A stretch of DNA of 64,000 nt from Escherichia coli. Lineage in GTDB: Bacteria; Pseudomonadota; Gammaproteobacteria; Enterobacterales; Enterobacteriaceae. Below are positions 1 through 53,861 of the stretch, in pieces (position 1 is the stretch's first letter; each line of letters starts with the position of its first letter). The notes under the pieces were generated by a model. It searched no databases. It was not told the origin of the DNA and worked only from the letters and a program-made list of their open reading frames with translations. A program made the position numbers and the translations under genes. The stretch is taken from NCBI RefSeq assembly GCF_003334305.1, contig NZ_QOWS01000006.1. One strand, 5' to 3'.

Positions 1-1347
<1,347 letters not shown>

Positions 1348-2226
1348 ATGGCTGAAGCGCAAAATGATCCCCTGCTGCCGGGATACTCGTTTAACGCCCA
1401 TCTGGTGGCGGGTTTAACGCCGATTGAGGCCAACGGTTATCTCGATTTTTTTATCGACCGACCGCTGGGAATGAAAGGTTATATTCTCAATCTCACCATT
1501 CGCGGTCAGGGGGTGGTGAAAAATCAGGGACGAGAATTTGTCTGCCGACCGGGTGATATTTTGCTGTTCCCGCCAGGAGAGATTCATCACTACGGCCGTC
1601 ATCCGGAGGCTCGCGAATGGTATCACCAGTGGGTTTACTTTCGTCCGCGCGCCTACTGGCATGAATGGCTTAACTGGCCGTCAATATTTGCCAATACGGG
1701 TTTCTTTCGCCCGGATGAAGCGCACCAGCCGCATTTCAGCGACTTGTTTGGGCAAATCATTAACGCCGGGCAAGGGGAAGGGCGCTATTCGGAGCTGCTG
1801 GCGATAAATCTGCTTGAGCAATTGTTACTGCGGCGCATGGAAGCGATTAACGAGTCGCTCCATCCACCGATGGATAATCGGGTACGCGAGGCTTGTCAGT
1901 ACATCAGCGATCATCTTGCTGACAGCAATTTTGATATCGCCAGCGTCGCACAGCATGTTTGCCTGTCGCCGTCGCGTCTGTCACATCTTTTCCGCCAGCA
2001 GTTAGGGATTAGCGTCTTAAGCTGGCGCGAGGACCAACGCATTAGTCAGGCGAAGCTGCTTTTGAGCACCACCCGGATGCCTATCGCTACCGTCGGTCGC
2101 AATGTTGGTTTTGACGATCAACTCTATTTCTCGCGAGTATTTAAAAAATGCACCGGGGCCAGCCCGAGCGAGTTCCGTGCCGGTTGTGAAGAAAAAGTGA
2201 ATGATGTAGCCGTCAAGTTGTCATAA
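1348..2226 (+). CDS. araC: Arabinose operon regulator AraC (AraC/XylS family)
   Basis: 292-aa product [35 protein letters not shown]... Start is internal to ORF 1297..2226 at the ATG at 1348. Confidence 0.97.
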
Positions 2227-2311
2227 TTGGTAACGAATCAGACAATTGACGGCTTGACGGAGTAGCATAGGGTTTGCAGAATCCCTGCTTCGTCCATTTG
2301 ACAGGCACATT

Positions 2312-3076
2312 ATGCAAGCATTGCTGGAACACTTTATTACCCAATCCACCGTGTATTCATTGATGGCGGTGGTGTTGGTGGCCTTTCTGGAGTCGCTGGC
2401 GCTGGTCGGTTTGATTCTACCCGGTACGGTGCTGATGGCGGGGCTGGGAGCGCTGATTGGCAGCGGCGAGTTAAGTTTCTGGCACGCCTGGCTGGCAGGG
2501 ATCGTCGGTTGCCTGCTGGGCGACTGGATCTCCTTCTGGCTGGGCTGGCGTTTTAAAAAGCCGTTGCATCGCTGGTCATTTCTGAAGAAAAACAAAGCAT
2601 TACTCGATAAAACTGAACATGCGTTGCATCAACACAGCATGTTCACCATTCTGGTCGGTCGCTTTGTTGGCCCGACGCGTCCGCTGGTGCCAATGGTGGC
2701 GGGAATGCTGGATCTGCCGGTGGCAAAATTCATTACGCCGAATATTATCGGCTGCCTGCTGTGGCCACCGTTTTACTTCCTGCCTGGGATTCTGGCGGGC
2801 GCGGCGATCGATATTCCAGCCGGAATGCAGAGCGGCGAGTTTAAATGGTTGCTGCTGGCGACGGCGGTATTTTTGTGGGTTGGTGGCTGGCTGTGCTGGC
2901 GGTTATGGCGCAGCGGTAAAGCAACCGATCGTTTAAGTCATTATTTGTCGCGCGGCCGTTTGTTGTGGCTGACGCCGTTAATTTCTGCCATCGGCGTGGT
3001 GGCGCTGGTGGTGTTAATTCGCCACCCGTTGATGCCGGTGTATATCGATATTTTGCGTAAAGTGGTTGGGGGTTAG
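2312..3076 (+). CDS. yabI: DedA-family inner membrane protein YabI
   Basis: 254-aa hydrophobic protein MQALLEHFITQSTVYSLMAVVLVAFLESLALVGLILPGTVLMAG..., typical DedA/SNARE-associated fold. Confidence 0.9.
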   Translation: MQALLEHFITQSTVYSLMAVVLVAFLESLALVGLILPGTVLMAGLGALIGSGELSFWHAWLAGIVGCLLGDWISFWLGWRFKKPLHRWSFLKKNKALLDKTEHALHQHSMFTILVGRFVGPTRPLVPMVAGMLDLPVAKFITPNIIGCLLWPPFYFLPGILAGAAIDIPAGMQSGEFKWLLLATAVFLWVGGWLCWRLWRSGKATDRLSHYLSRGRLLWLTPLISAIGVVALVVLIRHPLMPVYIDILRKVVGG

Positions 3077-3096
3077 GAGATAGTCTTGTGCGGGTT

Positions 3097-3183
<87 letters not shown>

Positions 3184-3189
3184 TGCATA

Positions 3190-3888
3190 CTAACCCGTAA
3201 TCCCCAATAGTGCCGAAGCACTCGCCTTACCGCTCAACAACTCATTGGTCTTACCCTGCCAGGCGATGCGCCCGTCGGCGACCACCACCGAGCGTGTGGC
3301 GATCCGCGCCGCATCTTCCACACTGTGCGACACCATCAATAGCGTCATTTTTTGCTGCTGGCAGCTCGTGCTCACCAGCGTCAGCATCTCCTGACGTAAC
3401 GCCGGATCGAGCGCAGAGAACGGTTCATCGAGCAATAAAATCGGCTGTTCGCGCACCAGACAACGCGCTAACGCCACGCGCTGTCGCTGACCGCCGGAAA
3501 GCTCGCCCGGTAACCGCGCCATTAAATTATCAATCCCCATCTGGCGGGCGATAGCGTGCATTTTCTCCTGCTGCGCCGCGTTCAGCTTCAATCCCGGATT
3601 AAGCCCCAGCCCGATGTTCTGCGCGACCGTCAGGTGGCTGAACAGGTTGTTCTCCTGAAACAGCATCGATACCGGACGGCGTGACGGCGGCGTCGTGGTG
3701 TGATCAACGCTGTCGATAGTCAGCGAACCGCTGGCTGGCGTCAGAAAACCGGCAATCAAATTCAGCAGGGTACTTTTACCCGCGCCGCTTGGCCCGAGGA
3801 TTGCCACCTGCTCGCCGCGTTCTACCGTTAAGCTAAAACGCATCGGCAAATGGTGATAAAGCCAGGTGATATCAGTCAGTTTTAACAT
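3190..3888 (-). CDS. thiQ: Thiamine ABC transporter ATP-binding protein ThiQ
   Basis: [48 protein letters not shown]... with Walker A and ABC signature LSGGQRQR. Start chosen at the internal ATG (3886-3888) rather than ORF-track 3909. Confidence 0.93.
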
Positions 3889-5482
3889 TTCGCCCCGGTA
3901 GTTTTTCAATCACGGTAAACAGCAGAAAACAGAGTAGTAGCAGAATTAACGCGGTGACCGCGCCGTCCTGGCTGCGATAGGAGCCAATTTGCTGGTAGAG
4001 ATAAAACGGCAGGGTACGGAAATCATCGTTACCGAACAACGCCACTACGCCAAAATCACCAATCGACAGCACGCAGGCAAAAGCCAGCGCCTGCGCCAGT
4101 GGACGTTTCAGGGCGTGCAGCTCGACCACTTTTAAGCGCGACCAGCCTTCAATGCCCAGCGACTGACACAATATACTGTAGCGGGCGGTGATATCGCGCA
4201 TCGGGTTTTCCAGTACTTTCAGCGCATAAGGGATCGCCATTAACGCATTGGTGAAAATCACAATGCCGTCAGCAGATTGTGGCAGGCCGATAGTGTTGTT
4301 GAGCAGTAAAAAGAAGCCGGTAGCCAGCACAATCCCCGGCATGGCGAGGATCAACATGCCGCTCATCTCCAGCGCCTGACCCGCCAGCATTTTCTGCCGC
4401 GCCCGCAGTTCGCGACTGCTCCATAGCAGCATCATGGTCAGCACTACGCACAATACACCTGCCGCCAGCGCAATACGCAACGAGGTCCACAGCGCCTGCC
4501 ACAGCACCGGTTGTGCCAGCACTTCCGGCAACTGGCGATTTACGCCATCGACGATCACCGCCAGCAACGGTGGCAGCAACAGCAGCAGCGCCAGCACTAT
4601 TAACACCGTGTCGCAAATGCGGCTATGCAGACGATCGTCCGGATCGCGCCAGCCTTGCAGCAGCGTGGTACCGGGCGCAATGGCCTTACTTAGTCGCTGA
4701 CTCAACAGCACCAGCCCAAGGCAACACACCATCTGGAGCAGCGCCAGCATCGCCGCGCGGGCAGGATCGTAGTCGTAACTCAGCGCCTGATAAATAGCCA
4801 GCTCGATAGTAGTTGCCTGCGGACCGCCGCCCAGCGATAGCACGGTGGCGAAGCTGGCGAAACAGAGCATAAAGATAAGCGCGGCAACCGGCGGGATTTG
4901 TCGCCGTAGCCACGGCCATTCGACGAAGCGGAAAAAATGCCAGCCGCGCATCCCAAGCTGGGCGGCAAGCTGACGTTGTTCGCCGGGAATGTTTTCCAGT
5001 GCCTGGAGTAATAAGCGGCTCGCCATCGGCAGATTAAAAAATACGTGCGCCAGCAAAATGCCTTGCAGGCCGTAGGGCGAAAAGGTCCACTCCAGACCGA
5101 GCGATTGGCAGAGCGATGCCAGCCAGCCCTGACGACCATAGACGCTAAGAATGCCGAAAACAGCAACTAGCACCGGGAGGATCAAGGTCATTGCGCACAG
5201 ACGCAACAGCGCCAGCCGACCCGGAAAGCGCCTGCGATAGAGGGCGCGGGCGAGGAATATCGCGGGTACGACAGAGAGTAGCGCCGAGAGAAACGCCTGC
5301 CAGAAGGAGAAGCGCACCACATGCCACAGGTAGCTGTCCTGCCAGACTGCCACCCAGTTACCCTGCGGCGCGTTCCACCACAGGGCGAGAAACGCCGCGA
5401 GCGCAACCGCTACCACCAGCGTGGCGGCGCTTACACCTGGAATTAACCAGCCGGGAATTAACGGCTGACGGCGCGTTGCCAT
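3872..5482 (-). CDS. thiP: Thiamine ABC transporter permease ThiP
   Basis: 536-aa polytopic membrane protein; overlaps thiQ start and thiB stop (operon thiBPQ). Confidence 0.93.
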
Positions 5483-6441
5483 TCGCTAATCCATGCCTGA
5501 CGTTGTGCCGCCACTTCAGCTGGTGTGAACTCCAGCGTGGTGGCCGGTTTGGTCAATTGTTCAAACCCGGCAGGCAGCGTGACATTTGCCACCGGATACA
5601 TCCAGTTACCGGTTGGGATCGCATTCTGAAAAGCCGGAGAAACCATAAACTGGAGGAATTTTTGCGCCAGCTCCGGCTGCTTGCTGGCAGCGGTGCGGGC
5701 GGCGACTTCCACCTGCAGATAGTGACCTTCGCTAAAGTTCGCGGCGGCGTAGTTATCTTTTTTCTCTTCGAGAATGTGATAAGCCGGAGAGGTGGTGTAA
5801 CTCAGTACCAGATCGCTTTCACCTTTTAAAAACAGGCCGTAGGCTTCGCTCCAGCCTTTGGTGACCGTGACGGTTTTCTTCGCCAGTTTTTGCCAGGCTT
5901 GTGGGGCGTCATCGCCATAGACTTTTTGCATCCACAACAGCAGGCCCAGCCCCGGCGTACTGGTGCGCGGATCCTGATAAATCACCCGCCAGTTTTGATC
6001 GCTCTCAACCAATTCTTTCAGGCTTTGCGGCGGGTTTTTCAGTTTGTTCTTGTCATAGACGAAGGCGAAATAGCCGTAATCAAACGGGACGAAAGTGTCA
6101 TTATTCCAGCCGCCGGGAACGTTAACGGCATCCGCTGCCACACCGCTTTTGGCAAATAGTCCGGTTTTACTGGCGGCGTCTAACAGATTGTTATCCAGCC
6201 CCAGCACCACATCGGCTTTACTATTTTTGCCTTCCATCCGTAGACGGTTGAGAAGCGAAACGCCATCTTCCAGCGCCACCAGTTTCAGTTCGCAGTTACA
6301 GTCGGCTTCAAAAGCTTTTTTGATCTTTGGACCAGGCCCCCAGTCGGCGGCGAAGGAATCGTAGGTATAAACAGTCAGAACGGGTTTAGCGAAAACGGGC
6401 GCTGTGCACAGCAACAGCAGGGGAAGACATTTTTTTAACAC
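5458..6441 (-). CDS. thiB: Thiamine/TPP periplasmic binding protein ThiB (TbpA)
   Basis: MLKKCLPLLLLCTAPVFAKPVLTVYTYDSFAADWGPGPKIKKAFEADC..., signal peptide plus SBP fold. Start at the internal ATG, not ORF-track 6453. Confidence 0.93.
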   Translation of the reverse strand: MLKKCLPLLLLCTAPVFAKPVLTVYTYDSFAADWGPGPKIKKAFEADCNCELKLVALEDGVSLLNRLRMEGKNSKADVVLGLDNNLLDAASKTGLFAKSGVAADAVNVPGGWNNDTFVPFDYGYFAFVYDKNKLKNPPQSLKELVESDQNWRVIYQDPRTSTPGLGLLLWMQKVYGDDAPQAWQKLAKKTVTVTKGWSEAYGLFLKGESDLVLSYTTSPAYHILEEKKDNYAAANFSEGHYLQVEVAARTAASKQPELAQKFLQFMVSPAFQNAIPTGNWMYPVANVTLPAGFEQLTKPATTLEFTPAEVAAQRQAWISEWQRAVSR

Positions 6442-6469
6442 TTTGCACCTCAAAAAAGAGTGGCAAAGG

Positions 6470-6595
6470 ACTTGAGAAGGAGCCTCAAATCCCTTCGCCG
6501 GCGTTATCCGGATCAGGTTCGACGGGTATTTTCTCAGCGCACGCGTTTGCGTGGCACCCCGTTGAGAACGGCGTTAGTGTAGTGATTTTGTTATC
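6470..6595 (-). promoter_or_regulatory. sroA: TPP riboswitch (THI-box) in the thiBPQ leader; corresponds to the SroA RNA fragment
   Basis: Minus-strand sequence ctgagaaaatacccgtcgaacctgatccggataacgccggcgaagg carries the conserved THI-box CUGAGA...ACCUGAUC-GGAUAAUGCC-GCGAAGG, directly upstream of thiB. Boundaries approximate. Confidence 0.85.
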
Positions 6596-6604
6596 TACCA
6601 GCAA

Positions 6605-8260
6605 TCATGGATCCGGCGGCGCAAACCACGCTGATTTAAAATCGAACCAGCCGAGGGTATTCATACGCAGGCCGCGCATACTGCGTTGTCCCTGAATGAT
6701 CAGCCAGTGGTGGATAAGCGGCACCATTGCTTTACTGGCGACCAGTTGCTGGCACCAGTTCGCCAGGTTCATTTCGCCATTGCGCCAGCGGGCGGCGTCG
6801 GCTTGCCAGTCGATCGGAATACAGTGTTGGAGCAGCGGCACCTCGCACAAGTGCGCGAACAGCGAAAAATCCAGCGGCAGCGTAAAGTTGGCGCTATTAA
6901 GCCAGATATCGCTCTCGATCTCTCCTTCATGCCACTGATCGTAGTCGATCTCTTTGATTTCCAGCGTGACCTGGTGGCTTGCCAGAATCTGCTGCATGAT
7001 CCCGGCAATCACCCGATGCTCACTGTGATCCTGATAAAAGGTCAGGGTGAGGCTTTCCAGACCAGCCGGTTTTTCGCTCTTTATGGTGCGGGCATGGTGC
7101 CAACGGGGGAGCAGTCCATAAGCCGGGAACCACAGTTGCTGGTACTGTTCCTCAGCGAAATAGACCAGATTAGTTGGAGAAAGCACATAGCTTACCCAGT
7201 CCCTGACTTGCTGATTCGCACCGCGATGGGTGCGGCTGTCGAATAGTAAATAGTAGCAACCTTCCTCCAGGCGGCTTTCAATCTCTTTTTCCTCGCCCTG
7301 TGGACCTTTTAGCATCAGACCTCCAGCTGGCTCGTCGGCAATTTCCGGCAGAACCCAGACGTTAACTTCATCGATTAATGCCCGGTAACCGAAGAAGTCA
7401 TCGAATGCCTGAATTTTCAGTTGATTGGTGGTGTTGCGGATCACCGCATACGGACCGGTGCCGATGGGATGGCTGGCAAAGTTACTGAGGGTTTCCCATT
7501 CGCGCGGCAGGATCATCGCCGGAACTTGCCCCAGCAGTAACGGTAACCAGCGGTCCGGTTGCGTGAGATGGATATCCAGCGTCCAGGGCGTCGGCGACAC
7601 AATGTCCGCAATATGCGAATAGAGCGGCAGCGTATTGATTCGTTTTAAAGAGGCGATCACGTCGTCCATTTCCAGTTCACGACCATGATGAAAATGGACT
7701 CCTGGACGCAAAAAGAAACGCCAGTGAAGCGGTGATATTTGCTGCCAGTGGTGGGCGATGTCTGCTTCCAGTTCCCCATTTTCCTCATTTATGCGCGTTA
7801 GCGAACTGAAGATTTGCCGGGCAATATGGGTTTCGGAACGGCGCAATGCGCTGCCAGGTAGCAGATTACGCAACGGACGATAGTAGAGCACGCGCAGGAT
7901 GTGCCGCCCCTGGCGGAAGCTGCGGCCCAGATGAGAAACCAGCATTTGCCGCACAGTCGCTTTGTCGCCAACCAACTGCACTAGTTGGTCGATACGATCC
8001 TGCTCCAGCAGGTCTTCCGCCCGCTGTTGCTGAAGCGCCAGCCCGGTATAGAGGAATGTCAGACGCGAGCGTTTACCACGCCCGACTTCCGCTTCCCACG
8101 TCAGCCAGCCGCGATCCTGCATGGTGTTGAGCAGGGTGCGCATATGACGACGCGAGCAGCTCAATAACGCTGCCAGTTCGTTGAGCGTTGTGTCCTGCGA
8201 TTTACCCTCGCAGCATTGCCACAGGCGGATGAACTGTTGTTGCAGACGAGCAGATGGCAT
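6605..8260 (-). CDS. sgrR: Sugar-phosphate stress transcriptional regulator SgrR
   Basis: 551-aa product [45 protein letters not shown]... (N-terminal HTH plus solute-binding-like domain); divergent from sgrS. Confidence 0.93.
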
Positions 8261-8327
8261 AAAAGGGGAACTCCTGTGCAAAAGACAGCAATTTTATTTT
8301 CCCTATATTAAGTCAATAATTCCTAAC

Positions 8328-8554
8328 GATGAAGCAAGGGGGTGCCCCATGCGTCAGTTTTATCAGCACTATTTTACCGCGACAGCGAAGTTGTGCTGGT
8401 TGCGTTGGTTAAGCGTCCCACAACGATTAACCATGCTTGAAGGACTGATGCAGTGGGATGACCGCAATTCTGAAAGTTGACTTGCCTGCATCATGTGTGA
8501 CTGAGTATTGGTGTAAAATCACCCGCCAGCAGATTATACCTGCTGGTTTTTTTT
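8328..8554 (+). ncRNA. sgrS: SgrS small RNA (dual-function: base-pairing sRNA plus sgrT mRNA)
   Basis: Divergent from sgrR; contains the sgrT ORF; 3' end has the conserved seed region (gtgtgactgagtattggtg) and an intrinsic terminator ccagcag-attatac-ctgctgg followed by an 8-T run (8526-8554). The 5' end is from memory of the annotation. Confidence 0.85.
8349..8480 (+). CDS. sgrT: SgrT, 43-aa inhibitor of glucose transporter PtsG, encoded within SgrS
   Basis: ATG at 8349 gives MRQFYQHYFTATAKLCWLRWLSVPQRLTMLEGLMQWDDRNSES. Confidence 0.85.
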   Translation: MRQFYQHYFTATAKLCWLRWLSVPQRLTMLEGLMQWDDRNSES

Positions 8555-8581
8555 ATTCTCGCCGCGCTAAAAAGGGAACGT

Positions 8582-9760
8582 ATGATCTGGATAATGACGA
8601 TGGCTCGCCGTATGAACGGTGTTTACGCGGCATTTATGCTGGTCGCTTTTATGATGGGGGTGGCCGGGGCGCTACAGGCTCCTACATTGAGCTTATTTCT
8701 GAGTCGTGAGGTTGGCGCGCAACCTTTCTGGATCGGACTCTTTTATACGGTGAATGCTATTGCTGGGATCGGCGTAAGCCTCTGGTTGGCAAAACGTTCT
8801 GACAGTCAGGGCGATCGGCGAAAACTGATTATATTTTGCTGTTTGATGGCTATCGGCAATGCGCTATTGTTTGCATTTAATCGTCATTATCTGACGCTTA
8901 TCACCTGTGGTGTGCTTCTGGCATCTCTGGCCAATACGGCAATGCCACAGTTATTTGCTCTGGCGCGGGAATATGCGGATAACTCGGCGCGAGAAGTGGT
9001 GATGTTTAGCTCGGTGATGCGTGCGCAGCTTTCTCTGGCATGGGTTATCGGTCCACCGTTGGCCTTTATGCTGGCGTTGAATTACGGCTTTACGGTGATG
9101 TTTTCGATTGCCGCCGGGATATTCACACTCAGTCTGGTATTGATTGCATTTATGCTTCCGTCTGTGGCGCGGGTAGAACTGCCGTCGGAAAATGCTTTAT
9201 CAATGCAAGGTGGCTGGCAGGATAGTAACGTACGGATGTTATTTGTCGCCTCGACGTTAATGTGGACCTGCAACACCATGTACATTATTGATATGCCGTT
9301 GTGGATCAGTAGCGAGTTAGGATTGCCAGACAAACTGGCGGGTTTCCTGATGGGGACGGCAGCTGGACTGGAAATACCAGCAATGATTCTGGCTGGCTAC
9401 TATGTCAAACGTTATGGTAAGCGGCGAATGATGGTCATAGCAGTGGCGGCAGGAGTACTGTTTTACACCGGATTGATTTTCTTTCATAGCCGTATGGCGT
9501 TGATGACGCTGCAACTTTTTAACGCTGTATTTATCGGCATTGTTGCGGGTATTGGGATGCTATGGTTTCAGGATTTAATGCCTGGAAGAGCGGGGGCAGC
9601 TACCACCTTATTTACTAACAGTATTTCTACCGGGGTAATTCTGGCTGGCGTTATTCAGGGAGCAATTGCACAAAGTTGGGGGCACTTTGCTGTCTACTGG
9701 GTAATTGCGGTTATTTCTGTTGTCGCATTATTTTTAACCGCAAAGGTTAAAGACGTTTGA
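8582..9760 (+). CDS. setA: Sugar efflux transporter SetA (MFS)
   Basis: 392-aa 12-TM MFS protein MIWIMTMARRMNGVYAAFMLVAFMMGVAGALQAPTLSLFLS... Confidence 0.93.
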   Translation: MIWIMTMARRMNGVYAAFMLVAFMMGVAGALQAPTLSLFLSREVGAQPFWIGLFYTVNAIAGIGVSLWLAKRSDSQGDRRKLIIFCCLMAIGNALLFAFNRHYLTLITCGVLLASLANTAMPQLFALAREYADNSAREVVMFSSVMRAQLSLAWVIGPPLAFMLALNYGFTVMFSIAAGIFTLSLVLIAFMLPSVARVELPSENALSMQGGWQDSNVRMLFVASTLMWTCNTMYIIDMPLWISSELGLPDKLAGFLMGTAAGLEIPAMILAGYYVKRYGKRRMMVIAVAAGVLFYTGLIFFHSRMALMTLQLFNAVFIGIVAGIGMLWFQDLMPGRAGAATTLFTNSISTGVILAGVIQGAIAQSWGHFAVYWVIAVISVVALFLTAKVKDV

Positions 9761-9808
9761 TGACGTGGACGATAGCGGAAAGCCCGGTCATTTGACCGGG
9801 CAAGGGGA

Positions 9809-11825
<2,017 letters not shown>

Positions 11826-11827
11826 GA

Positions 11828-14490
<2,663 letters not shown>

Positions 14491-14533
14491 GGTTTGGGTC
14501 CTTGTCTCTTTTAGAGCGCCTCGCTTCGGGCAT

Positions 14534-14564
14534 AAAAAAACCCGCGCAATGGCGCGGGTTTTTT
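14534..14564 (-). terminator. leu operon attenuator (intrinsic terminator between leuL and leuA)
   Basis: On the transcribed minus strand: hairpin cccgcgccattgcgcggg followed by a 7-U run; lies between the leader peptide stop and leuA start. Confidence 0.85.
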
Positions 14565-14582
14565 GTTTGACTGCGTGCTGGC

Positions 14583-14669
14583 TTAATGCTGGATGCCGCT
14601 CACTCGTCTACCGCGCAAAGAAGATGCGTTTAGTAGTAGTAGACCGATAAAGCGAACGATGTGAGTCAT
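14583..14669 (-). CDS. leuL: leu operon leader peptide LeuL (28 aa, four consecutive Leu codons)
   Basis: [28 protein letters not shown]; the four Leu are consecutive CUA codons (complement of tagtagtagtag at 14631-14642). Confidence 0.9.
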
Positions 14670-14774
14670 TAAATCAGCTCCAGATGAATGCGATATGCTT
14701 TTAGAGTTACTGGATACAAAAACGGATGTCAACCCTGACGCAATAAAAACGTCCCGCCAGCGTGAGTTCTGCAT

Positions 14775-15328
14775 CCGTAAAATTAGCTAATTGTGCTGCG
14801 GTGGTTAAAGTAAGCGATATTAATTTCTGCTTAACTACCGACGCTTTTCATCGGTTGACATATTTCAGCATAAATTTTTGCATCTAATCAACGAGGAAAA
14901 AGGGGACAAAATGCACGCGTTGCAAAACCTATCCTGATGATTTGTATTGAATTATATGTTTTGCGATTTTTTTTGATATTGATTTGGTGAATATTATTGA
15001 TCAATTAATGTTAAGAATTAATGCATTAAATATATAAATTAATTATTAAATAAGCACATTTAATCCATTTTGTAGATGATTGAGTATTCGCGGTAGTTAT
15101 GATTAGATTGTTTTCGCAACAAAAACATTATGGATTATTATGCTGTGGTAAATGACTCATTCCACGGCAATGGATTCTGTTTTTATCAGAACCCGTATCT
15201 TTATGTTTTCCGAATTTTACTCATTTTGCTTTTTCTTATTTTATATGCATGATAAATCATATTCTTCAGGATTATTTCTCTGCATTCCAATAAGGGAAAG
15301 GGAGTTAAGTGTGACAGTGGAGTTAAGT
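14775..15328. promoter_or_regulatory. AT-rich leuLABCD/leuO divergent regulatory region (leu promoter, leuO promoter, H-NS-bound AT tract)
   Basis: About 550 bp of very AT-rich DNA (e.g. attaatgttaagaattaatgcattaaatatataaattaattattaaataagc) between divergent leuL and leuO. H-NS silencing of leuO here is established for E. coli/Salmonella. Confidence 0.7.
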
Positions 15329-16273
15329 ATGCCAGAGGTACAAACAGATCATTCAGAGACGGCGGAGTTAAGCAAGCCACAGCTACGCATGGTCGATCTC
15401 AACTTATTAACCGTTTTCGATGCCGTGATGCAGGAGCAAAACATTACCCGTGCCGCTCATGTTCTGGGTATGTCGCAACCTGCGGTCAGTAACGCTGTTG
15501 CACGCCTGAAGGTGATGTTTAATGACGAGCTTTTTGTTCGTTATGGCCGTGGTATTCAACCGACTGCTCGCGCATTTCAACTTTTTGGCTCAGTTCGTCA
15601 GGCATTGCAACTAGTACAAAATGAATTGCCTGGTTCAGGTTTTGAACCCGCGAGCAGTGAACGTGTATTTCATCTTTGTGTTTGCAGCCCGTTAGACAGC
15701 ATTCTGACCTCGCAGATTTATAATCACATTGAGCAGATTGCGCCAAATATACATGTTATGTTCAAGTCTTCATTAAATCAGAACACTGAACATCAGCTGC
15801 GTTATCAGGAAACGGAGTTTGTGATTAGTTATGAAGACTTCCATCGTCCTGAATTTACCAGCGTGCCATTATTTAAAGATGAAATGGTGCTGGTAGCCAG
15901 CAAAAATCATCCAACAATTAAGGGCCCGTTACTGAAACATGATGTTTATAACGAACAACATGCGGCGGTTTCGCTCGATCGTTTCGCGTCATTTAGTCAA
16001 CCTTGGTATGACACGGTAGATAAGCAAGCCAGTATCGCGTATCAGGGCATGGCAATGATGAGCGTACTTAGCGTGGTGTCGCAAACGCATTTGGTCGCTA
16101 TTGCGCCGCGTTGGCTGGCTGAAGAGTTCGCTGAATCCTTAGAATTACAGGTATTACCGCTGCCGTTAAAACAAAACAGCAGAACCTGTTATCTCTCCTG
16201 GCATGAAGCTGCCGGGCGCGATAAAGGCCATCAGTGGATGGAAGAACAATTAGTCTCAATTTGCAAACGCTAA
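15329..16273 (+). CDS. leuO: LysR-family global regulator LeuO
   Basis: 314-aa product [61 protein letters not shown]... (LysR HTH). Start internal to ORF-track 15152. Confidence 0.93.
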
Positions 16274-16278
16274 CTGAA

Positions 16279-16326
16279 TGCAGAATAGGCCAGACATGAA
16301 TGTCTGGTTTATTCTGCATTTTTTAT
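16279..16326 (+). terminator. leuO intrinsic terminator
   Basis: Extended inverted repeat tgcagaatagg-ccagacat/atgtctgg-tttattctgca followed by ttttttatt. Confidence 0.7.
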
Positions 16327-16590
16327 TGAATGTAGAATTTTATTCTGAATGTGTGTGCTCTCTATTTTAGGATTAATTAAAAAAATAGAGAAATTGCTGT
16401 AAGTTGTGGGATTCAGCCGATTTATTGTCAATTTAATCCTTCGTAATGGAGGATTTTATCGTTTCTTTTCACCTTTCCTCCTGTTTATTCTTATTACCCT
16501 GCGTTTATGTCTCTGGCTGCCAATTGCTTAAGCAAGATCGGACGGTTAATGTGTTTTACACATTTTTTCCGTCAAACAGTGAGGCAGGCC
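16327..16590 (+). promoter_or_regulatory. ilvIH promoter/leader region (Lrp-regulated)
   Basis: AT-rich region with repeated tgaatg/tagaat motifs upstream of ilvI. Lrp control of ilvIH is established; individual sites were not mapped by me. Confidence 0.5.
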
Positions 16591-18315
16591 ATGGAGATGT
16601 TGTCTGGAGCCGAGATGGTCGTCCGATCGCTTATCGATCAGGGCGTTAAACAAGTATTCGGTTATCCCGGAGGCGCAGTCCTTGATATTTACGATGCATT
16701 GCATACCGTGGGTGGTATTGATCATGTATTAGTTCGTCATGAGCAGGCGGCGGTGCATATGGCCGATGGCCTGGCGCGTGCGACCGGGGAAGTCGGCGTC
16801 GTGCTGGTAACGTCGGGTCCAGGGGCGACCAATGCGATTACCGGCATCGCCACCGCTTATATGGATTCCATTCCATTAGTTGTCCTTTCCGGGCAGGTAG
16901 CGACCTCGTTGATAGGTTACGATGCCTTTCAGGAGTGCGACATGGTGGGGATTTCGCGACCGGTGGTTAAACACAGTTTTCTGGTTAAGCAAACGGAAGA
17001 CATTCCGCAGGTGCTGAAAAAGGCTTTCTGGCTGGCGGCAAGTGGTCGTCCTGGACCAGTAGTCGTTGATTTACCGAAAGATATTCTTAATCCGGCGAAC
17101 AAATTACCCTATGTCTGGCCGGAGTCGGTTAGTATGCGTTCTTACAATCCCACTACTACCGGACATAAAGGGCAAATTAAGCGTGCTCTGCAAACGCTGG
17201 TGGCGGCAAAAAAACCGGTTGTCTACGTAGGCGGTGGGGCAATCACGGCGGGCTGCCATCAGCAGTTGAAAGAAACGGTGGAGGCGTTGAATCTGCCCGT
17301 TGTTTCCTCATTGATGGGCCTGGGGGCATTTCCGGCAACGCATCGTCAGGCGCTGGGCATGCTGGGAATGCACGGCACCTACGAAGCCAATATGACGATG
17401 CATAACGCGGATGTGATTTTCGCCGTCGGGGTAAGATTTGATGACCGAACGACGAATAATCTGGCAAAGTACTGCCCAAATGCCACTGTTCTGCATATCG
17501 ATATTGATCCTACTTCCATTTCTAAAACCGTGACTGCTGATATCCCGATTGTGGGGGATGCTCGCCAGGTCCTCGAACAAATGCTTGAACTCCTGTCGCA
17601 AGAATCCGCCCATCAACCGCTGGATGAGATCCGCGACTGGTGGCAGCAGATTGAACAGTGGCGCGCTCGTCAGTGCCTGAAATATGACACTCACAGTGAA
17701 AAGATTAAACCGCAGGCGGTGATCGAGACTCTTTGGCGGTTGACGAAGGGAGACGCTTACGTGACGTCCGATGTCGGGCAGCACCAGATGTTTGCTGCAC
17801 TTTATTATCCATTCGACAAACCGCGTCGCTGGATCAATTCCGGTGGCCTCGGCACGATGGGTTTTGGTTTACCTGCGGCACTGGGCGTCAAAATGGCGTT
17901 GCCAGAAGAAACCGTGGTTTGCGTCACTGGCGACGGCAGTATTCAGATGAACATCCAGGAACTGTCTACCGCGTTGCAATACGAGTTGCCGGTACTGGTG
18001 GTGAATCTCAATAACCGCTATCTGGGGATGGTGAAACAGTGGCAGGACATGATCTATTCCGGCCGTCATTCACAATCTTATATGCAATCACTACCCGATT
18101 TCGTCCGTCTGGCGGAAGCCTATGGTCACGTCGGGATCCAGATCTCTCATCCGCATGAGCTGGAAAGCAAACTTAGCGAGGCGCTGGAACAGGTGCGCAA
18201 TAATCGCCTGGTGTTTGTTGATGTTACCGTCGATGGCAGTGAGCACGTCTACCCGATGCAGATTCGCGGGGGCGGAATGGATGAAATGTGGTTAAGCAAA
18301 ACGGAGAGAACCTGA
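16591..18315 (+). CDS. ilvI: Acetolactate synthase III large subunit IlvI
   Basis: [38 protein letters not shown]... TPP-dependent enzyme, 574 aa; start internal to ORF-track 16507. Confidence 0.96.
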
Positions 18316-18317
18316 TT

Positions 18318-18809
18318 ATGCGCCGGATATTATCAGTCTTACTCGAAAATGAATCAGGCGCGTTATCCCGCGTGATTGGCCTTTTTTCCCAGCGTGGCTA
18401 CAACATTGAAAGCCTGACCGTTGCGCCAACCGACGATCCGACATTATCGCGTATGACCATCCAGACCGTGGGCGATGAAAAAGTGCTTGAGCAGATCGAA
18501 AAGCAATTACACAAGCTGGTCGATGTCTTGCGCGTGAGTGAGTTGGGGCAGGGCGCGCATGTTGAGCGGGAAATCATGCTGGTGAAAATTCAGGCCAGCG
18601 GTTACGGGCGTGACGAAGTGAAACGTAATACGGAAATATTCCGTGGGCAAATTATCGATGTCACCCCCTCGCTTTATACCGTTCAATTAGCAGGCACCAG
18701 CGATAAGCTTGATGCATTTTTAGCATCGATTCGCGATGTGGCGAAAATTGTGGAAGTTGCTCGCTCTGGTGTGGTCGGACTTTCGCGCGGCGATAAAATA
18801 ATGCGTTGA
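18318..18809 (+). CDS. ilvH: Acetolactate synthase III small (regulatory) subunit IlvH
   Basis: [40 protein letters not shown]... ACT domain, 163 aa. Confidence 0.96.
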
Positions 18810-18834
18810 GAATGATCTCAGTGCGCAATTTGCA

Positions 18835-18862
18835 GCCCAACATGTCACGTTGGGCTTTTTTT
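18835..18862 (+). terminator. ilvIH intrinsic terminator
   Basis: Hairpin gcccaac-atgtcac-gttgggc followed by a T7 run. Confidence 0.8.
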
Positions 18863-18988
18863 GCGAAATCAGTGGGAACCTGGAATAAAAGCAGTTGCCG
18901 CAGTTAATTTTCTGCGCTTAGATGTTAATGAATTTAACCCATACCAGTACAATGGCTATGGTTTTTACATTTTACGCAAGGGGCAATT

Positions 18989-19993
18989 GTGAAACTGGAT
19001 GAAATCGCTCGGCTGGCGGGAGTGTCGCGGACCACTGCAAGCTATGTTATTAACGGCAAAGCGAAGCAATACCGTGTGAGCGACAAAACCGTTGAAAAAG
19101 TCATGGCTGTGGTGCGTGAGCACAATTACCACCCGAACGCCGTGGCAGCTGGGCTTCGTGCTGGACGCACACGTTCTATTGGTCTTGTGATCCCCGATCT
19201 GGAGAACACCAGCTATACCCGCATCGCTAACTATCTTGAACGCCAGGCGCGGCAACGGGGTTATCAACTGCTAATTGCCTGCTCAGAAGATCAGCCAGAC
19301 AACGAAATGCGCTGTATTGAGCACCTTTTACAGCGTCAGGTCGATGCCATTATTGTTTCGACGTCGTTGCCTCCTGAGCATCCTTTTTATCAACGCTGGG
19401 CTAACGACCCGTTCCCGATTGTCGCGCTGGACCGCGCCCTCGATCGTGAACACTTCACCAGCGTGGTTGGTGCCGATCAGGATGATGCCGAAATGCTGGC
19501 GGAAGAGTTACGTAAGTTTCCCGCCGAGACGGTGCTTTATCTTGGCGCGCTGCCGGAGCTTTCTGTCAGCTTCCTGCGTGAACAAGGTTTCCGTACTGCC
19601 TGGAAAGATGATCCGCGCGAAGTGCATTTCCTGTATGCCAACAGCTATGAGCGGGAGGCGGCTGCCCAGTTATTCGAAAAATGGCTGGAAACGCATCCGA
19701 TGCCGCAGGCGCTGTTCACAACGTCGTTTGCGTTGTTGCAAGGGGTGATGGATGTAACGCTACGTCGCGATGGTAAACTGCCTTCTGACCTGGCAATTGC
19801 CACCTTTGGCGATAACGAACTGCTCGACTTCTTACAGTGCCCGGTGCTGGCAGTGGCTCAACGTCACCGCGATGTCGCAGAGCGTGTGCTGGAGATTGTC
19901 CTGGCAAGCCTGGACGAACCGCGTAAGCCAAAACCTGGTTTAACGCGCATTAAACGTAATCTCTATCGTCGCGGTGTGCTCAGCCGTAGCTAA
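18989..19993 (+). CDS. cra: Catabolite repressor/activator Cra (FruR), LacI family
   Basis: GTG start; (M)[56 protein letters not shown]... Confidence 0.95.
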
Positions 19994-20499
19994 GCCGCGA
20001 ACAAAAATACGCGCCAGGTGAATTTCCCTCTGGCGCGTAGAGTACGGGAATGGACATCAATATCCTTAAAGTAAATAAGACTATTCCTGACTATTATTGA
20101 TAAGTTCTTTTAAACCCGCCCGTTAATTAACTCACCAGCTGAAATTCACAATAATTAAGTGATATCGACAGCGCGTTTTTGCATTATTTTGTTACATGCA
20201 GAGATGAATTGCCGATTTAACAAGCACTTTTCTTTGCTTTTGCGCAAACCCGCTGGCATCAAGCGCCACACAGACGCAACAGGGACTGTTAACCGGGGAA
20301 GATATGTCCTAAAATGCCGCTCGCGTCGCAAACTGACACTTTATATTTGCTGTGGAAAATAGTGAGTCATTTTAAAACGGTGATGACGATGAGGGATTTT
20401 TTCTTACAGCTATTCATAACGTTAATTTGCTGCGCACGTTGGACGTAAAATAAACAACGCTGATATTAGCCGTAAACATCGGGTTTTTTACCTCGGTAT

Positions 20500-34946: not shown

Positions 34947-36205
34947 TCAAGGCGACGGACAGAAAACTGGTAGTAGGACTGGAGATTGGTACCGCGAAGG
35001 TTGCCGCTTTAGTAGGGGAAGTTCTGCCCGACGGTATGGTCAATATCATTGGCGTGGGCAGCTGCCCGTCACGTGGTATGGATAAAGGCGGGGTGAACGA
35101 CCTCGAATCCGTGGTCAAGTGCGTACAACGCGCCATTGACCAGGCAGAATTGATGGCAGATTGTCAGATCTCTTCGGTATATCTGGCGCTTTCTGGTAAG
35201 CACATCAGCTGCCAGAATGAAATTGGTATGGTGCCTATTTCTGAAGAAGAAGTGACGCAAGAAGATGTGGAAAACGTCGTCCATACCGCGAAATCGGTGC
35301 GTGTGCGCGATGAACATCGTGTGCTGCATGTGATCCCGCAAGAGTATGCGATTGACTATCAGGAAGGGATCAAGAATCCGGTAGGACTTTCGGGCGTGCG
35401 GATGCAGGCAAAAGTGCACCTGATCACATGTCACAACGATATGGCGAAAAACATCGTCAAAGCGGTTGAACGTTGTGGGCTGAAAGTTGACCAACTGATA
35501 TTTGCCGGACTGGCATCAAGTTATTCGGTATTGACGGAAGATGAACGTGAACTGGGTGTCTGCGTCGTCGATATCGGTGGTGGTACAATGGATATCGCCG
35601 TTTATACCGGTGGGGCATTGCGCCACACTAAGGTAATTCCTTATGCTGGCAATGTCGTGACCAGTGATATCGCTTACGCCTTTGGCACGCCGCCAAGCGA
35701 CGCCGAAGCGATTAAAGTTCGCCACGGTTGTGCGCTGGGTTCCATCGTTGGAAAAGATGAGAGCGTGGAAGTGCCGAGCGTAGGCGGTCGTCCGCCACGG
35801 AGTCTGCAACGTCAGACCCTGGCAGAGGTGATCGAGCCGCGCTATACCGAGCTGCTCAACCTGGTCAACGAAGAGATATTGCAGTTGCAGGAAAAGCTTC
35901 GCCAACAAGGGGTTAAACATCACCTGGCGGCAGGCATTGTATTAACCGGTGGCGCAGCGCAGATCGAAGGTCTTGCAGCCTGTGCTCAGCGCGTGTTTCA
36001 TACGCAAGTGCGTATCGGCGCGCCGCTGAACATTACCGGTTTAACGGATTATGCTCAGGAGCCGTATTATTCGACGGCGGTGGGATTGCTTCACTATGGG
36101 AAAGAGTCACATCTTAACGGTGAAGCTGAAGTAGAAAAACGTGTTACAGCATCAGTTGGCTCGTGGATCAAGCGACTCAATAGTTGGCTGCGAAAAGAGT
36201 TTTAA
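34943..36205 (+). CDS. ftsA: Cell division protein FtsA (actin-like ATPase)
   Basis: 420 aa; [57 protein letters not shown]... Confidence 0.97.
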
Positions 36206-36265
36206 TTTTTATGAGGCCGACGATGATTACGGCCTCAGGCGACAGGCACAAATCGGAGAGAAACT

Positions 36266-37417
36266 ATGTTTGAACCAATGGAACTTACCAATGACGCGGT
36301 GATTAAAGTCATCGGCGTCGGCGGCGGCGGCGGTAATGCTGTTGAACACATGGTGCGCGAGCGCATTGAAGGTGTTGAATTCTTCGCGGTAAATACCGAT
36401 GCACAAGCGCTGCGTAAAACAGCGGTTGGACAGACGATTCAAATCGGTAGCGGTATCACCAAAGGACTGGGCGCTGGCGCTAATCCAGAAGTTGGCCGCA
36501 ATGCGGCTGATGAGGATCGCGATGCATTGCGTGCGGCGCTGGAAGGTGCAGACATGGTCTTTATTGCTGCGGGTATGGGTGGTGGTACCGGTACAGGTGC
36601 AGCACCAGTCGTCGCTGAAGTGGCAAAAGATTTGGGTATCCTGACCGTTGCTGTCGTCACTAAGCCTTTCAACTTTGAAGGCAAGAAGCGTATGGCATTC
36701 GCGGAGCAGGGGATCACTGAACTGTCCAAGCATGTGGACTCTCTGATCACTATCCCGAACGACAAACTGCTGAAAGTTCTGGGCCGCGGTATCTCCCTGC
36801 TGGATGCGTTTGGCGCAGCGAACGATGTACTGAAAGGCGCTGTGCAAGGTATCGCTGAACTGATTACTCGTCCGGGTTTGATGAACGTGGACTTTGCAGA
36901 CGTACGCACCGTAATGTCTGAGATGGGCTACGCAATGATGGGTTCTGGCGTGGCGAGCGGTGAAGACCGTGCGGAAGAAGCTGCTGAAATGGCTATCTCT
37001 TCTCCGCTGCTGGAAGATATCGACCTGTCTGGCGCGCGCGGCGTGCTGGTTAACATCACGGCGGGCTTCGACCTGCGTCTGGATGAGTTCGAAACGGTAG
37101 GTAACACCATCCGTGCATTTGCTTCCGACAACGCGACTGTGGTTATCGGTACTTCTCTTGACCCGGATATGAATGACGAGCTGCGCGTAACCGTTGTTGC
37201 GACAGGTATCGGCATGGACAAACGTCCTGAAATCACTCTGGTGACCAATAAGCAGGTTCAGCAGCCAGTGATGGATCGCTACCAGCAGCATGGGATGGCT
37301 CCGCTGACCCAGGAGCAGAAGCCGGTTGCTAAAGTCGTGAATGACAATGCGCCGCAAACTGCGAAAGAGCCGGATTATCTGGATATCCCAGCATTCCTGC
37401 GTAAGCAAGCTGATTAA
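36266..37417 (+). CDS. ftsZ: Cell division GTPase FtsZ
   Basis: 383 aa; tubulin signature GGGTGTG (…[20 protein letters not shown]…). Confidence 0.98.
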
Positions 37418-39239: not shown

Positions 39240-41945
39240 ATGCTAATCAAATTGTTAACTAAAGTTTTCGGTAGTCGTAACGATCGCACCCTGCGCCGGA
39301 TGCGCAAAGTGGTCAACATCATCAATGCCATGGAACCGGAGATGGAAAAACTCTCCGACGAAGAACTGAAAGGGAAAACCGCAGAGTTTCGTGCACGTCT
39401 GGAAAAAGGCGAAGTGCTGGAAAATCTGATCCCGGAAGCTTTCGCCGTGGTACGTGAGGCAAGTAAGCGCGTCTTTGGTATGCGTCACTTCGACGTTCAG
39501 TTACTCGGCGGTATGGTTCTTAACGAACGCTGCATCGCCGAAATGCGTACCGGTGAAGGTAAAACCCTGACCGCAACGCTGCCTGCTTACCTGAACGCAC
39601 TAACCGGTAAAGGCGTGCACGTAGTTACCGTCAACGACTACCTGGCGCAACGTGACGCCGAAAACAACCGTCCGCTGTTTGAATTCCTTGGCCTGACTGT
39701 CGGTATCAACCTGCCGGGCATGCCAGCACCGGCAAAGCGCGAAGCTTACGCATCTGACATCACTTACGGTACGAACAACGAATACGGCTTTGACTACCTG
39801 CGCGACAATATGGCGTTCAGCCCTGAAGAACGTGTACAGCGTAAACTGCACTATGCGCTGGTGGACGAAGTGGACTCCATCCTGATCGATGAAGCGCGTA
39901 CACCGCTGATCATTTCCGGCCCGGCAGAAGACAGCTCGGAAATGTATAAACGCGTGAATAAAATTATTCCGCACCTGATCCGTCAGGAAAAAGAAGACTC
40001 CGAAACCTTCCAGGGCGAAGGCCACTTCTCGGTGGACGAAAAATCTCGCCAGGTGAACCTGACCGAACGTGGTCTGGTGCTGATTGAAGAACTGCTGGTG
40101 AAAGAGGGCATCATGGATGAAGGGGAGTCTCTGTACTCTCCGGCCAACATCATGCTGATGCACCACGTAACGGCGGCGCTGCGCGCTCATGCGCTGTTTA
40201 CCCGCGACGTCGACTACATCGTTAAAGATGGTGAAGTTATCATCGTTGACGAACACACCGGTCGTACCATGCAGGGCCGTCGCTGGTCCGATGGTCTGCA
40301 CCAGGCTGTGGAAGCGAAAGAAGGTGTGCAGATCCAGAACGAAAACCAAACGCTGGCTTCGATCACCTTCCAGAACTACTTCCGTCTGTATGAAAAACTG
40401 GCGGGGATGACCGGTACTGCTGATACCGAAGCTTTCGAATTTAGCTCCATCTACAAGCTGGATACCGTCGTTGTTCCGACCAACCGTCCAATGATTCGTA
40501 AAGATCTGCCGGACCTGGTCTACATGACTGAAGCGGAAAAAATTCAGGCGATCATTGAAGATATCAAAGAACGTACTGCGAAAGGCCAGCCGGTGCTGGT
40601 GGGTACTATCTCCATCGAAAAATCGGAGCTGGTGTCAAACGAACTGACCAAAGCCGGTATTAAGCACAACGTCCTGAACGCCAAATTCCACGCCAACGAA
40701 GCGGCGATTGTTGCTCAGGCAGGTTATCCGGCTGCGGTGACTATCGCGACCAATATGGCGGGTCGTGGTACAGATATTGTGCTCGGTGGTAGCTGGCAGG
40801 CAGAAGTTGCCGCGCTGGAAAATCCGACCGTAGAGCAAATTGAAAAAATTAAAGCCGACTGGCAGGTACGTCACGATGCGGTACTGGAAGCAGGTGGCCT
40901 GCATATCATCGGTACCGAGCGTCACGAATCCCGTCGTATCGATAACCAGTTGCGCGGTCGTTCTGGTCGTCAGGGGGATGCTGGTTCTTCCCGTTTCTAC
41001 CTGTCGATGGAAGATGCGCTGATGCGTATTTTTGCTTCCGACCGAGTATCCGGCATGATGCGTAAACTGGGTATGAAGCCAGGCGAAGCCATTGAACACC
41101 CGTGGGTGACTAAAGCGATTGCCAACGCCCAGCGTAAAGTTGAAAGCCGTAACTTCGACATTCGTAAGCAACTGCTGGAATATGATGACGTGGCTAACGA
41201 TCAGCGTCGCGCCATTTACTCCCAGCGTAACGAACTGCTGGATGTCAGCGATGTGAGCGAAACCATCAACAGCATTCGTGAAGATGTGTTCAAAGCGACC
41301 ATTGATGCCTACATTCCGCCACAGTCACTGGAAGAAATGTGGGATATTCCGGGGCTGCAGGAACGTCTGAAGAACGATTTCGACCTCGATTTGCCAATTG
41401 CCGAGTGGCTGGATAAAGAACCAGAACTGCATGAAGAGACGCTGCGTGAGCGAATTCTGGCGCAGTCCATCGAAGTGTATCAGCGTAAAGAAGAAGTGGT
41501 TGGTGCTGAGATGATGCGTCACTTCGAGAAAGGCGTCATGCTGCAAACGCTTGACTCCCTGTGGAAAGAGCACCTGGCAGCGATGGACTATCTGCGTCAG
41601 GGTATCCACCTGCGTGGCTATGCACAGAAAGATCCGAAGCAGGAATACAAACGTGAATCGTTCTCCATGTTTGCAGCGATGCTGGAGTCGTTAAAATATG
41701 AAGTTATCAGCACGCTGAGCAAAGTCCAGGTACGTATGCCTGAAGAGGTTGAGGAGCTGGAACAACAGCGTCGTATGGAAGCCGAGCGTTTAGCGCAAAT
41801 GCAGCAGCTTAGCCATCAGGATGACGACTCTGCAGCCGCAGCTGCACTGGCGGCGCAAACCGGTGAGCGCAAAGTAGGACGTAACGATCCTTGCCCGTGC
41901 GGTTCTGGTAAAAAATACAAGCAGTGCCATGGTCGCCTGCAATAA
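39240..41945 (+). CDS. secA: Preprotein translocase ATPase SecA
   Basis: 901 aa; [47 protein letters not shown]...; C-terminal zinc-binding [14 protein letters not shown]. Confidence 0.98.
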
Positions 41946-41962
41946 AAGCTAACAGTTGAAGT

Positions 41963-41991
41963 AAAAGGCGCAGGATTCTGCGCCTTTTTTA
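41963..41991 (+). terminator. Intrinsic terminator-like hairpin after secA, upstream of mutT
   Basis: ggcgcag-gattc-tgcgcc followed by a T6 run, 14 nt before the mutT ATG. Confidence 0.65.
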
Positions 41992-42004: not shown

Positions 42005-42480
<476 letters not shown>

Positions 42481-53701: not shown

Positions 53702-53861
53702 TGATTTTTCTGGTAAAAATTATCCAGAAGATGTTGTAAATCAAGCGCATATAAAAGCGCGGCAACTAAACGTAGAACCTGTCTTATTGAGCTTTCCGGC
53801 GAGAGTTCAATGGGACAGGTTCCAGAAAACTCAACGTTATTAGATAGATAAGGAATAACCC

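Follow-up and report, generated by a model that had tools for sequence, protein, structure and literature searches.

A K-12-type sgrS gene with an intact sgrT reading frame and a ptsG-pairing seed in an Escherichia coli genome

SgrS, together with the small protein SgrT, is the founding dual-function RNA of Gram-negative bacteria and a standard system in which to study regulation that depends on Hfq. Studies of a K-12 sequence identical to the one described here report that sgrS is induced by glucose-phosphate stress in an SgrR-dependent manner (PMC4021124, PMC12612679), and that its seed blocks the ptsG ribosome-binding site and acts on manXYZ and other targets too (PMC12612679; PMC4021124). 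The dual function of SgrS lies in its also encoding SgrT, an inhibitor of PtsG (PMC12612679), and ectopic sgrT by itself rescues stressed cells (PMC12612679; PMC2760806). The SgrS and SgrT of Salmonella Typhimurium belong to the same family and share the dual function, but Salmonella SgrS is without the 5' hairpin of the K-12 allele and yields more SgrT (40 aa), and Salmonella SgrT can rescue stressed cells without base pairing (PMC2760806, PMC2760817). AzuCR, RNAIII, SR1 and Pel resemble SgrS in that one transcript combines base pairing with a small protein (PMC12612679, PMC8915982); in the locus examined here the coding segment (8349-8480) is separate from the pairing segment (8484-8515), whereas the two segments of AzuCR overlap (PMC8915982).

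The window that we analysed is a stretch of 64,000 nucleotides from an E. coli contig (NZ_QOWS01000006.1), in which an original prediction, made from the letters alone, had placed an SgrS RNA with an embedded sgrT of 43 codons. An Rfam 15 scan of the whole window places the SgrS family (RF00534) on the plus strand at 8328-8554, end to end over model positions 1-232 of 232, with a score of 228.8 bits (gathering score 37; E 2.7e-64). Alignment to K-12, which the prediction had proposed as a check, gives 100% identity to MG1655 sgrS (b4577) over all 227 nt, and the fold energy of the full RNA is better than that of 200 out of 200 shuffles (z -3.43). The gene is divergent from that of its activator, sgrR (6605-8260, minus strand, at the coordinates of K-12 b0069), whose product scores 1128.9 bits against the NCBIfam model NF010149, 'HTH-type transcriptional regulator SgrR' (cut-off 476). 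Just 27 nt separate the end of the sgrS U tail from the start of setA, a sugar efflux transporter gene (8582-9760, plus strand; TIGR00899, 602 bits; K-12 b0070), and read-through of the sgrS terminator into setA, forming an sgrS-setA operon, has been reported with a setA probe (PMC4509938). Downstream of setA lies leuD (9809-10414, minus strand), with leuC next, so that sgrS sits between sgrR and leuD, the location characteristic of the family, and the order of sgrR, setA and leuD around it is that of K-12. In its 227 nt, its neighbours, its SgrT (b4662) and the 5' hairpin containing G8340, the feature shows no difference from MG1655. We are as good as certain that window 8328-8554 is the sgrS gene in its K-12-type allele, carrying an intact sgrT and a ptsG-pairing seed; the feature is already known, since it matches without any difference the SgrS that has been studied most.

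Collinearity with K-12 (positions 69040-133100) extends over the entire window, whose first 20000 nt (1-20000) are 100% identical to at least four other E. coli genomes (H15, A7, 41 and FCI51). The strain is nevertheless different from MG1655: there are 304 differences in the first 14961 nt, very unevenly distributed. Divergence is greatest at 6501-7000, in the 3' half of sgrR, where 500 nt hold up to 41 differences, and amounts to 11-28 differences per 500 nt in thiQ/thiP/thiB, as against only 3 differences across 8001-10000, which holds the 5' end of sgrR, sgrS and setA. Over window 1-15000 this divergence looks like a recombination mosaic.

Several further observations concern other parts of the window. 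A match of 105.5 bits to RF02797, 'Plasmid-encoded Shigella sRNA A' (PssrA), lies on the chromosome at 36185-36274 (plus strand), where the 3' end of ftsA meets the start of ftsZ (K-12 ~105224-105313), opposite the antisense RNA stfZ; the family name is ill-fitting for this site. Rfam also reports tp2 at 53746-53859 (minus strand), on the opposite strand of the pdhR-aceE intergenic region, STnc40 at 41921-41990 (plus strand), at the 3' end of secA and upstream of mutT, and naRNA4 at 42394-42471 (plus strand), over REP elements past mutT, at a place where a small indel also distinguishes the window from K-12. The leu operon leader/attenuator (14534-14683, minus strand, 145.8 bits) and a TPP riboswitch upstream of thiB (6472-6571, minus strand, 66.1 bits; the sroA region of K-12) are both expected. 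Within aceF, as annotated in K-12, an internal tandem repeat of about 80% identity with an offset of about 300 nt spans 56555-57420; we take it to represent repeated lipoyl-domain segments.

Within SgrS, the translation of 8349-8480 (plus strand) is uninterrupted from the ATG at 8349 to the TGA at 8478-8480 and reads MRQFYQHYFTATAKLCWLRWLSVPQRLTMLEGLMQWDDRNSES, 43 codons and a stop, at the position of K-12 b4662, which is annotated there as 'PtsG glucose transporter inhibitor'. The peptide matches Pfam PF15894 (SgrT) over residues 3-37 with an E-value of 3.5e-13, and the prediction of an intact sgrT is thereby borne out. A search of NCBIfam with SgrT returned 0 matches, but that library is without an HMM for the family, so this is not evidence against the reading frame.

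The transcript that carries this frame is delimited at both ends. The sgrR-sgrS intergenic region (8261-8327, plus strand, 67 nt, as read from the sequence) contains the sgrS promoter, and its likely -10 element is AATAAT at 8315-8320, 7 nt upstream of the 5' end at 8328; the -35 that we assign to it, TTTTAT at 8292-8297, is likely a poor one, as would be expected of an activator-dependent promoter. A consensus promoter scan left this -10 uncalled. The scan instead proposed AAGACA/TATATT at 8282-8309, which we reject as the sgrS promoter because 18 nt lie between the end of its -10 and the mapped 5' end. Between the two E. coli haplotypes described below, the spacer shows 1 difference in 67 nt, and conservation of the -10 element and of SgrR-dependent sequences has been described (PMC2760817). 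At the other end, a terminator scan, the fold and the Rfam consensus structure place a Rho-independent terminator at 8525-8554 (plus strand), consisting of an 8-bp stem and a 7-nt loop (hairpin 8525-8547) followed by 8 T at 8547-8554, and thus lying 3' of the seed as predicted; a polyU length of 8 is also given for the SgrS terminator in the literature (PMC4509938). In the fold of 8494-8555 and in the centroid structure, a small hairpin (GGUG-UAAAAU-CACC, 8510-8523, plus strand) preceded by a U-rich UAUU stands immediately upstream. The Hfq-binding module, of which the small hairpin and U-rich stretch form part, was defined by Ishikawa et al. (2012), as later papers relate (PMC4021124, PMC4509938), and the architecture of the predicted module is present here: small hairpin, U-rich stretch, terminator and long U tail. 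At the sequence level a single terminated RNA (8328-8554) contains both the small ORF and the seed, as a dual-function RNA should. On the minus strand, two ORFs (8369-8494, 41 aa; 8427-8522, 31 aa) and a promoter-like site (8517-8490) are without support, and we take them as chance occurrences.

Base pairing was assessed by an accessibility-corrected duplex search, in which windowed hybridisation was combined with an unpairing cost charged for both RNAs. An unrestricted RNAduplex run of full SgrS against the ptsG leader had returned a long-loop structure of -77.9 kcal/mol, which is physically meaningless and was discarded. The ptsG sequence was taken from strain 41, 100% identical to window 1-20000; its leader (-110 to +60) is identical to that of K-12, and the leader is conserved at 99% identity or more in 5423 of 5426 complete E. 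coli genomes. The best duplex joins SgrS nt 167-188, that is 8494-8515 (UGUGUGACUGAGUAUUGGUGUA), to ptsG -29 to -8 (AGCACCCAUACUCAGGAGCACU), over the ptsG Shine-Dalgarno sequence, with a total energy of -17.9 kcal/mol and a hybrid energy of -27.8. None of 100 dinucleotide shuffles of the leader did as well (mean -5.7, sd 1.8; z -6.7). The proposed test of seed complementarity to the ptsG 5' UTR in the same genome, with strain 41 as stand-in, thus has a positive outcome, and the predicted seed 'around 8487-8520' proves a correct if generous bracket.

The same prediction named manX as a second partner, and here the outcome is mixed. A duplex between manX +19 to +39 and 8484-8504 was found (hybrid energy -22.3 kcal/mol), but once accessibility is charged it is indistinguishable from shuffles (z -0.4), and the site rests on the literature; the ptsG half of the claim stands. 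The manX-manY intergenic region (manY -45 to -29) pairs with 8494-8507 at z -2.4, with 0 of 40 shuffles as good. Taken together the sites define a base-pairing region at 8484-8515 (plus strand), and no other stretch of SgrS is as accessible in the computed ensemble as the seed, whose mean unpaired probability at 8498-8507 is 0.88.

In the same ensemble the least accessible part of SgrS is the sgrT start region, 8348-8357, with an unpaired probability of 0.04. The GGGGG at 8338-8342, 6 nt upstream of the sgrT ATG and part of AAGGGGG at 8336-8342, had been put forward as a plausible ribosome-binding motif. It is indeed the sgrT Shine-Dalgarno sequence, but it is not simply that, being also one half of an inverted repeat, GGGGGTGCCCC (8338-8348, plus strand, within the 8336-8348 element), which is evident in the sequence and the local fold and is known from mutagenesis of the K-12 allele to repress SgrT synthesis (Wadler & Vanderpool 2009; PMC2760806). 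In westerns, no SgrT was detected from the K-12 allele sgrS1, in which the repeat is kept, and SgrT was detected from the repeat-mutated sgrS4 and sgrS5 (C-to-T or C-to-A; PMC2760806). In a local fold, the hairpin is worth -10.2 kcal/mol with G at 8340 versus -4.5 with A. Because the GGGGG completes GGGGGTGCCCC, which is repressive in K-12, the protein arm would be weak in this allele and the base-pairing arm dominant.

G rather than A at 8340 is the minority state. The exact 40-mer 8311-8350 occurs in 1429 of 5367 E. coli genomes, and the remaining 3938 have a one-position mismatch to it, so that most E. coli genomes are without the hairpin variant; these counts agree with the rarity of the stem-loop noted by Horler & Vanderpool (2009), who found it in only 3 of 15 E. 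coli strains (PMC2760817). The sgrS of STEC383 differs from that of the window solely by G-to-A at 8340. Among the strains sampled, the G8340 40-mer is always on the haplotype that carries setA. We considered whether the GGGGG Shine-Dalgarno sequence is tied to setA, with SgrT and SetA as alternatives, and rejected the idea: setA is present in 3241 genomes as against 1429 for the 40-mer, and many genomes, STEC383 and 2014C-3050 among them, have setA together with GGAGG.

A survey of 5426 complete E. coli genomes, counted per identity band, found sgrS in 5400. The 26 genomes without a match may reflect mislabelled replicons, large chromids or deletions, and the same possible causes apply to the 3 sgrS/setA and 5 ptsG matches that sit on plasmid-labelled records. 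The distribution has two states: 3230 genomes are at least 99% identical to the window's sgrS and 2158 fall at 80-90%, with almost none between. The second state corresponds to the 88% identical allele of the CFT073/O157 type, described in 2009 (PMC2760817), and the allele variation in the species is partly published already. In 4 of 4 fetched examples of this allele sgrS abuts leuD and setA is absent. Since setA is found in 3241 genomes and K-12-type sgrS in 3242, the 3' third of sgrS and setA (window 8443-9760) appear to form one two-state block, the boundary of which lies inside the last sgrT codons.

The differences between the two alleles are concentrated in the 3' third of the RNA. They amount to 0.9% over the SgrS 5' end and sgrT codons 1-31 (8328-8441), 42% over sgrT codons 37-43 and the stop (8457-8480), none over the seed island (8489-8514) and 26-56% over the two hairpins (8516-8547), where the architecture of two hairpins and a U tail is kept all the same. 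The CFT073/O157:H7-type allele agrees with the window in its promoter and 5' end, in SgrT residues 1-31, in the seed (8489-8514) and in its terminal architecture, but differs in having a canonical GGAGG Shine-Dalgarno sequence (A at 8340), other hairpin loops, no setA downstream and an SgrT C-terminus of EELMQWEGSHSDY as opposed to EGLMQWDDRNSES. O157-type copies have ATT in place of the sgrT ATG (PMC2760817), and the copy in ERL06-2503 (L003:422-553) conforms to this published state; RefSeq (PGAP) still annotates an intact sgrT in it, WP_001248768.1, under the same accession as ATG alleles. In HS-02 (L005:422-552) sgrT is a frameshifted pseudogene.

How such an allele would work can be set out from published studies of the identical K-12 sequence, our own tests being of the anatomy of the sequence. 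Under glucose-phosphate stress, SgrR would activate the sgrS promoter, and the resulting 227-nt transcript would stop at the intrinsic terminator, whose hairpin and U8, together with the small hairpin and U-rich stretch, would serve as the Hfq-binding module. The single-stranded segment 8494-8515 would then pair across the ptsG Shine-Dalgarno sequence, leading to a translation block and RNase E-dependent decay, and overlapping stretches would pair with manX +19 to +39 and with the manX-manY intergenic region. From the 5' two-thirds of SgrS, sgrT would supply a 43-aa product that attaches to PtsG and prevents it from transporting glucose. In the modelled structure, a GC-rich hairpin holds the Shine-Dalgarno sequence (with G8340) and a long-range helix takes in the AUG, and their sequestration would keep SgrT output low, leaving the base-pairing arm to carry most of the response. 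Some transcripts would read through into setA, giving extended forms that would be without Hfq binding; such forms have been described in K-12, where stress raises termination (PMC4509938). As far as can be read from it, the sequence holds nothing that contradicts this explanation.

Might SgrS here act by base pairing only, with sgrT intact but essentially silent, and possibly decaying, under all natural conditions? Translation would be prevented by the hairpin with G8340 and by the long-range helix that covers the AUG, the start region being almost wholly paired. Such a reading would account for the failure to detect SgrT from the hairpin-keeping sgrS1 and for the inability of a base-pairing-defective K-12 allele to rescue stressed cells (PMC2760806); it also fits a hairpin variant that is derived and in the minority, and the loss of sgrT elsewhere through the O157 ATT start and the HS-02 frameshift. 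A silent gene is nonetheless difficult to square with an ORF that is perfectly conserved in the 3230 genomes at 99% identity or more, and with residues 1-31 that are the same across both haplotypes, and ectopic sgrT, as noted, rescues alone (PMC12612679; PMC2760806). The authors of the mutagenesis study, moreover, leave the hairpin as possibly regulatory (PMC2760806). We consider lasting silence unlikely, though it deserves to be taken seriously. A further reading, following that opening in their discussion (PMC2760806), is that the G8340 hairpin could be a conditional switch and not a step towards loss of SgrT, with temperature, a helicase or chaperone, or target pairing as proposed openers that could unmask sgrT only under particular conditions; we hold this to be distinctly improbable.

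The proximity of setA raises another question, namely whether the stretch serves mainly as the leader of the setA mRNA, with the 227-nt RNA arising only incidentally when transcription terminates early. With setA beginning 27 nt past the U tail, frequent read-through in a documented sgrS-setA operon (PMC4509938) and setA presence that co-varies with the sgrS 3' allele, the idea has some appeal. As a sole function it is refuted, however, because the 2158 E. coli genomes without setA keep sgrS, with seed and terminator architecture intact. The inducing stress, moreover, enhances termination, and only the terminated form binds Hfq (PMC4509938); complementarity of the seed to ptsG (z -6.7) is also highly non-random. 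We regard a mainly leader-like role as scarcely credible. We dismiss outright the idea that an intergenic region contains the ORF and the complementary seed merely by chance: a lone ORF of 43 codons is not rare, but the Rfam (E 2.7e-64) and Pfam (E 3.5e-13) matches, the duplex z-score of -6.7 and identity to a characterised gene are all incompatible with chance. The reading that we retain is that of a K-12-type sgrS, with both functions encoded and SgrT probably made sparingly.

The worth of the identification lies in correct annotation only, as nothing new about the biology follows from meeting the K-12 allele in a further E. coli strain. Little SgrT is to be expected from strains with the G8340 allele, in line with the published results on the same allele in K-12; were the conditional switch true, the allele would instead be a regulated two-stage responder. 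Across the two states of sgrS in E. coli, the invariant 26-nt seed shows, as an example provided by nature, where in the RNA constraint is strongest.
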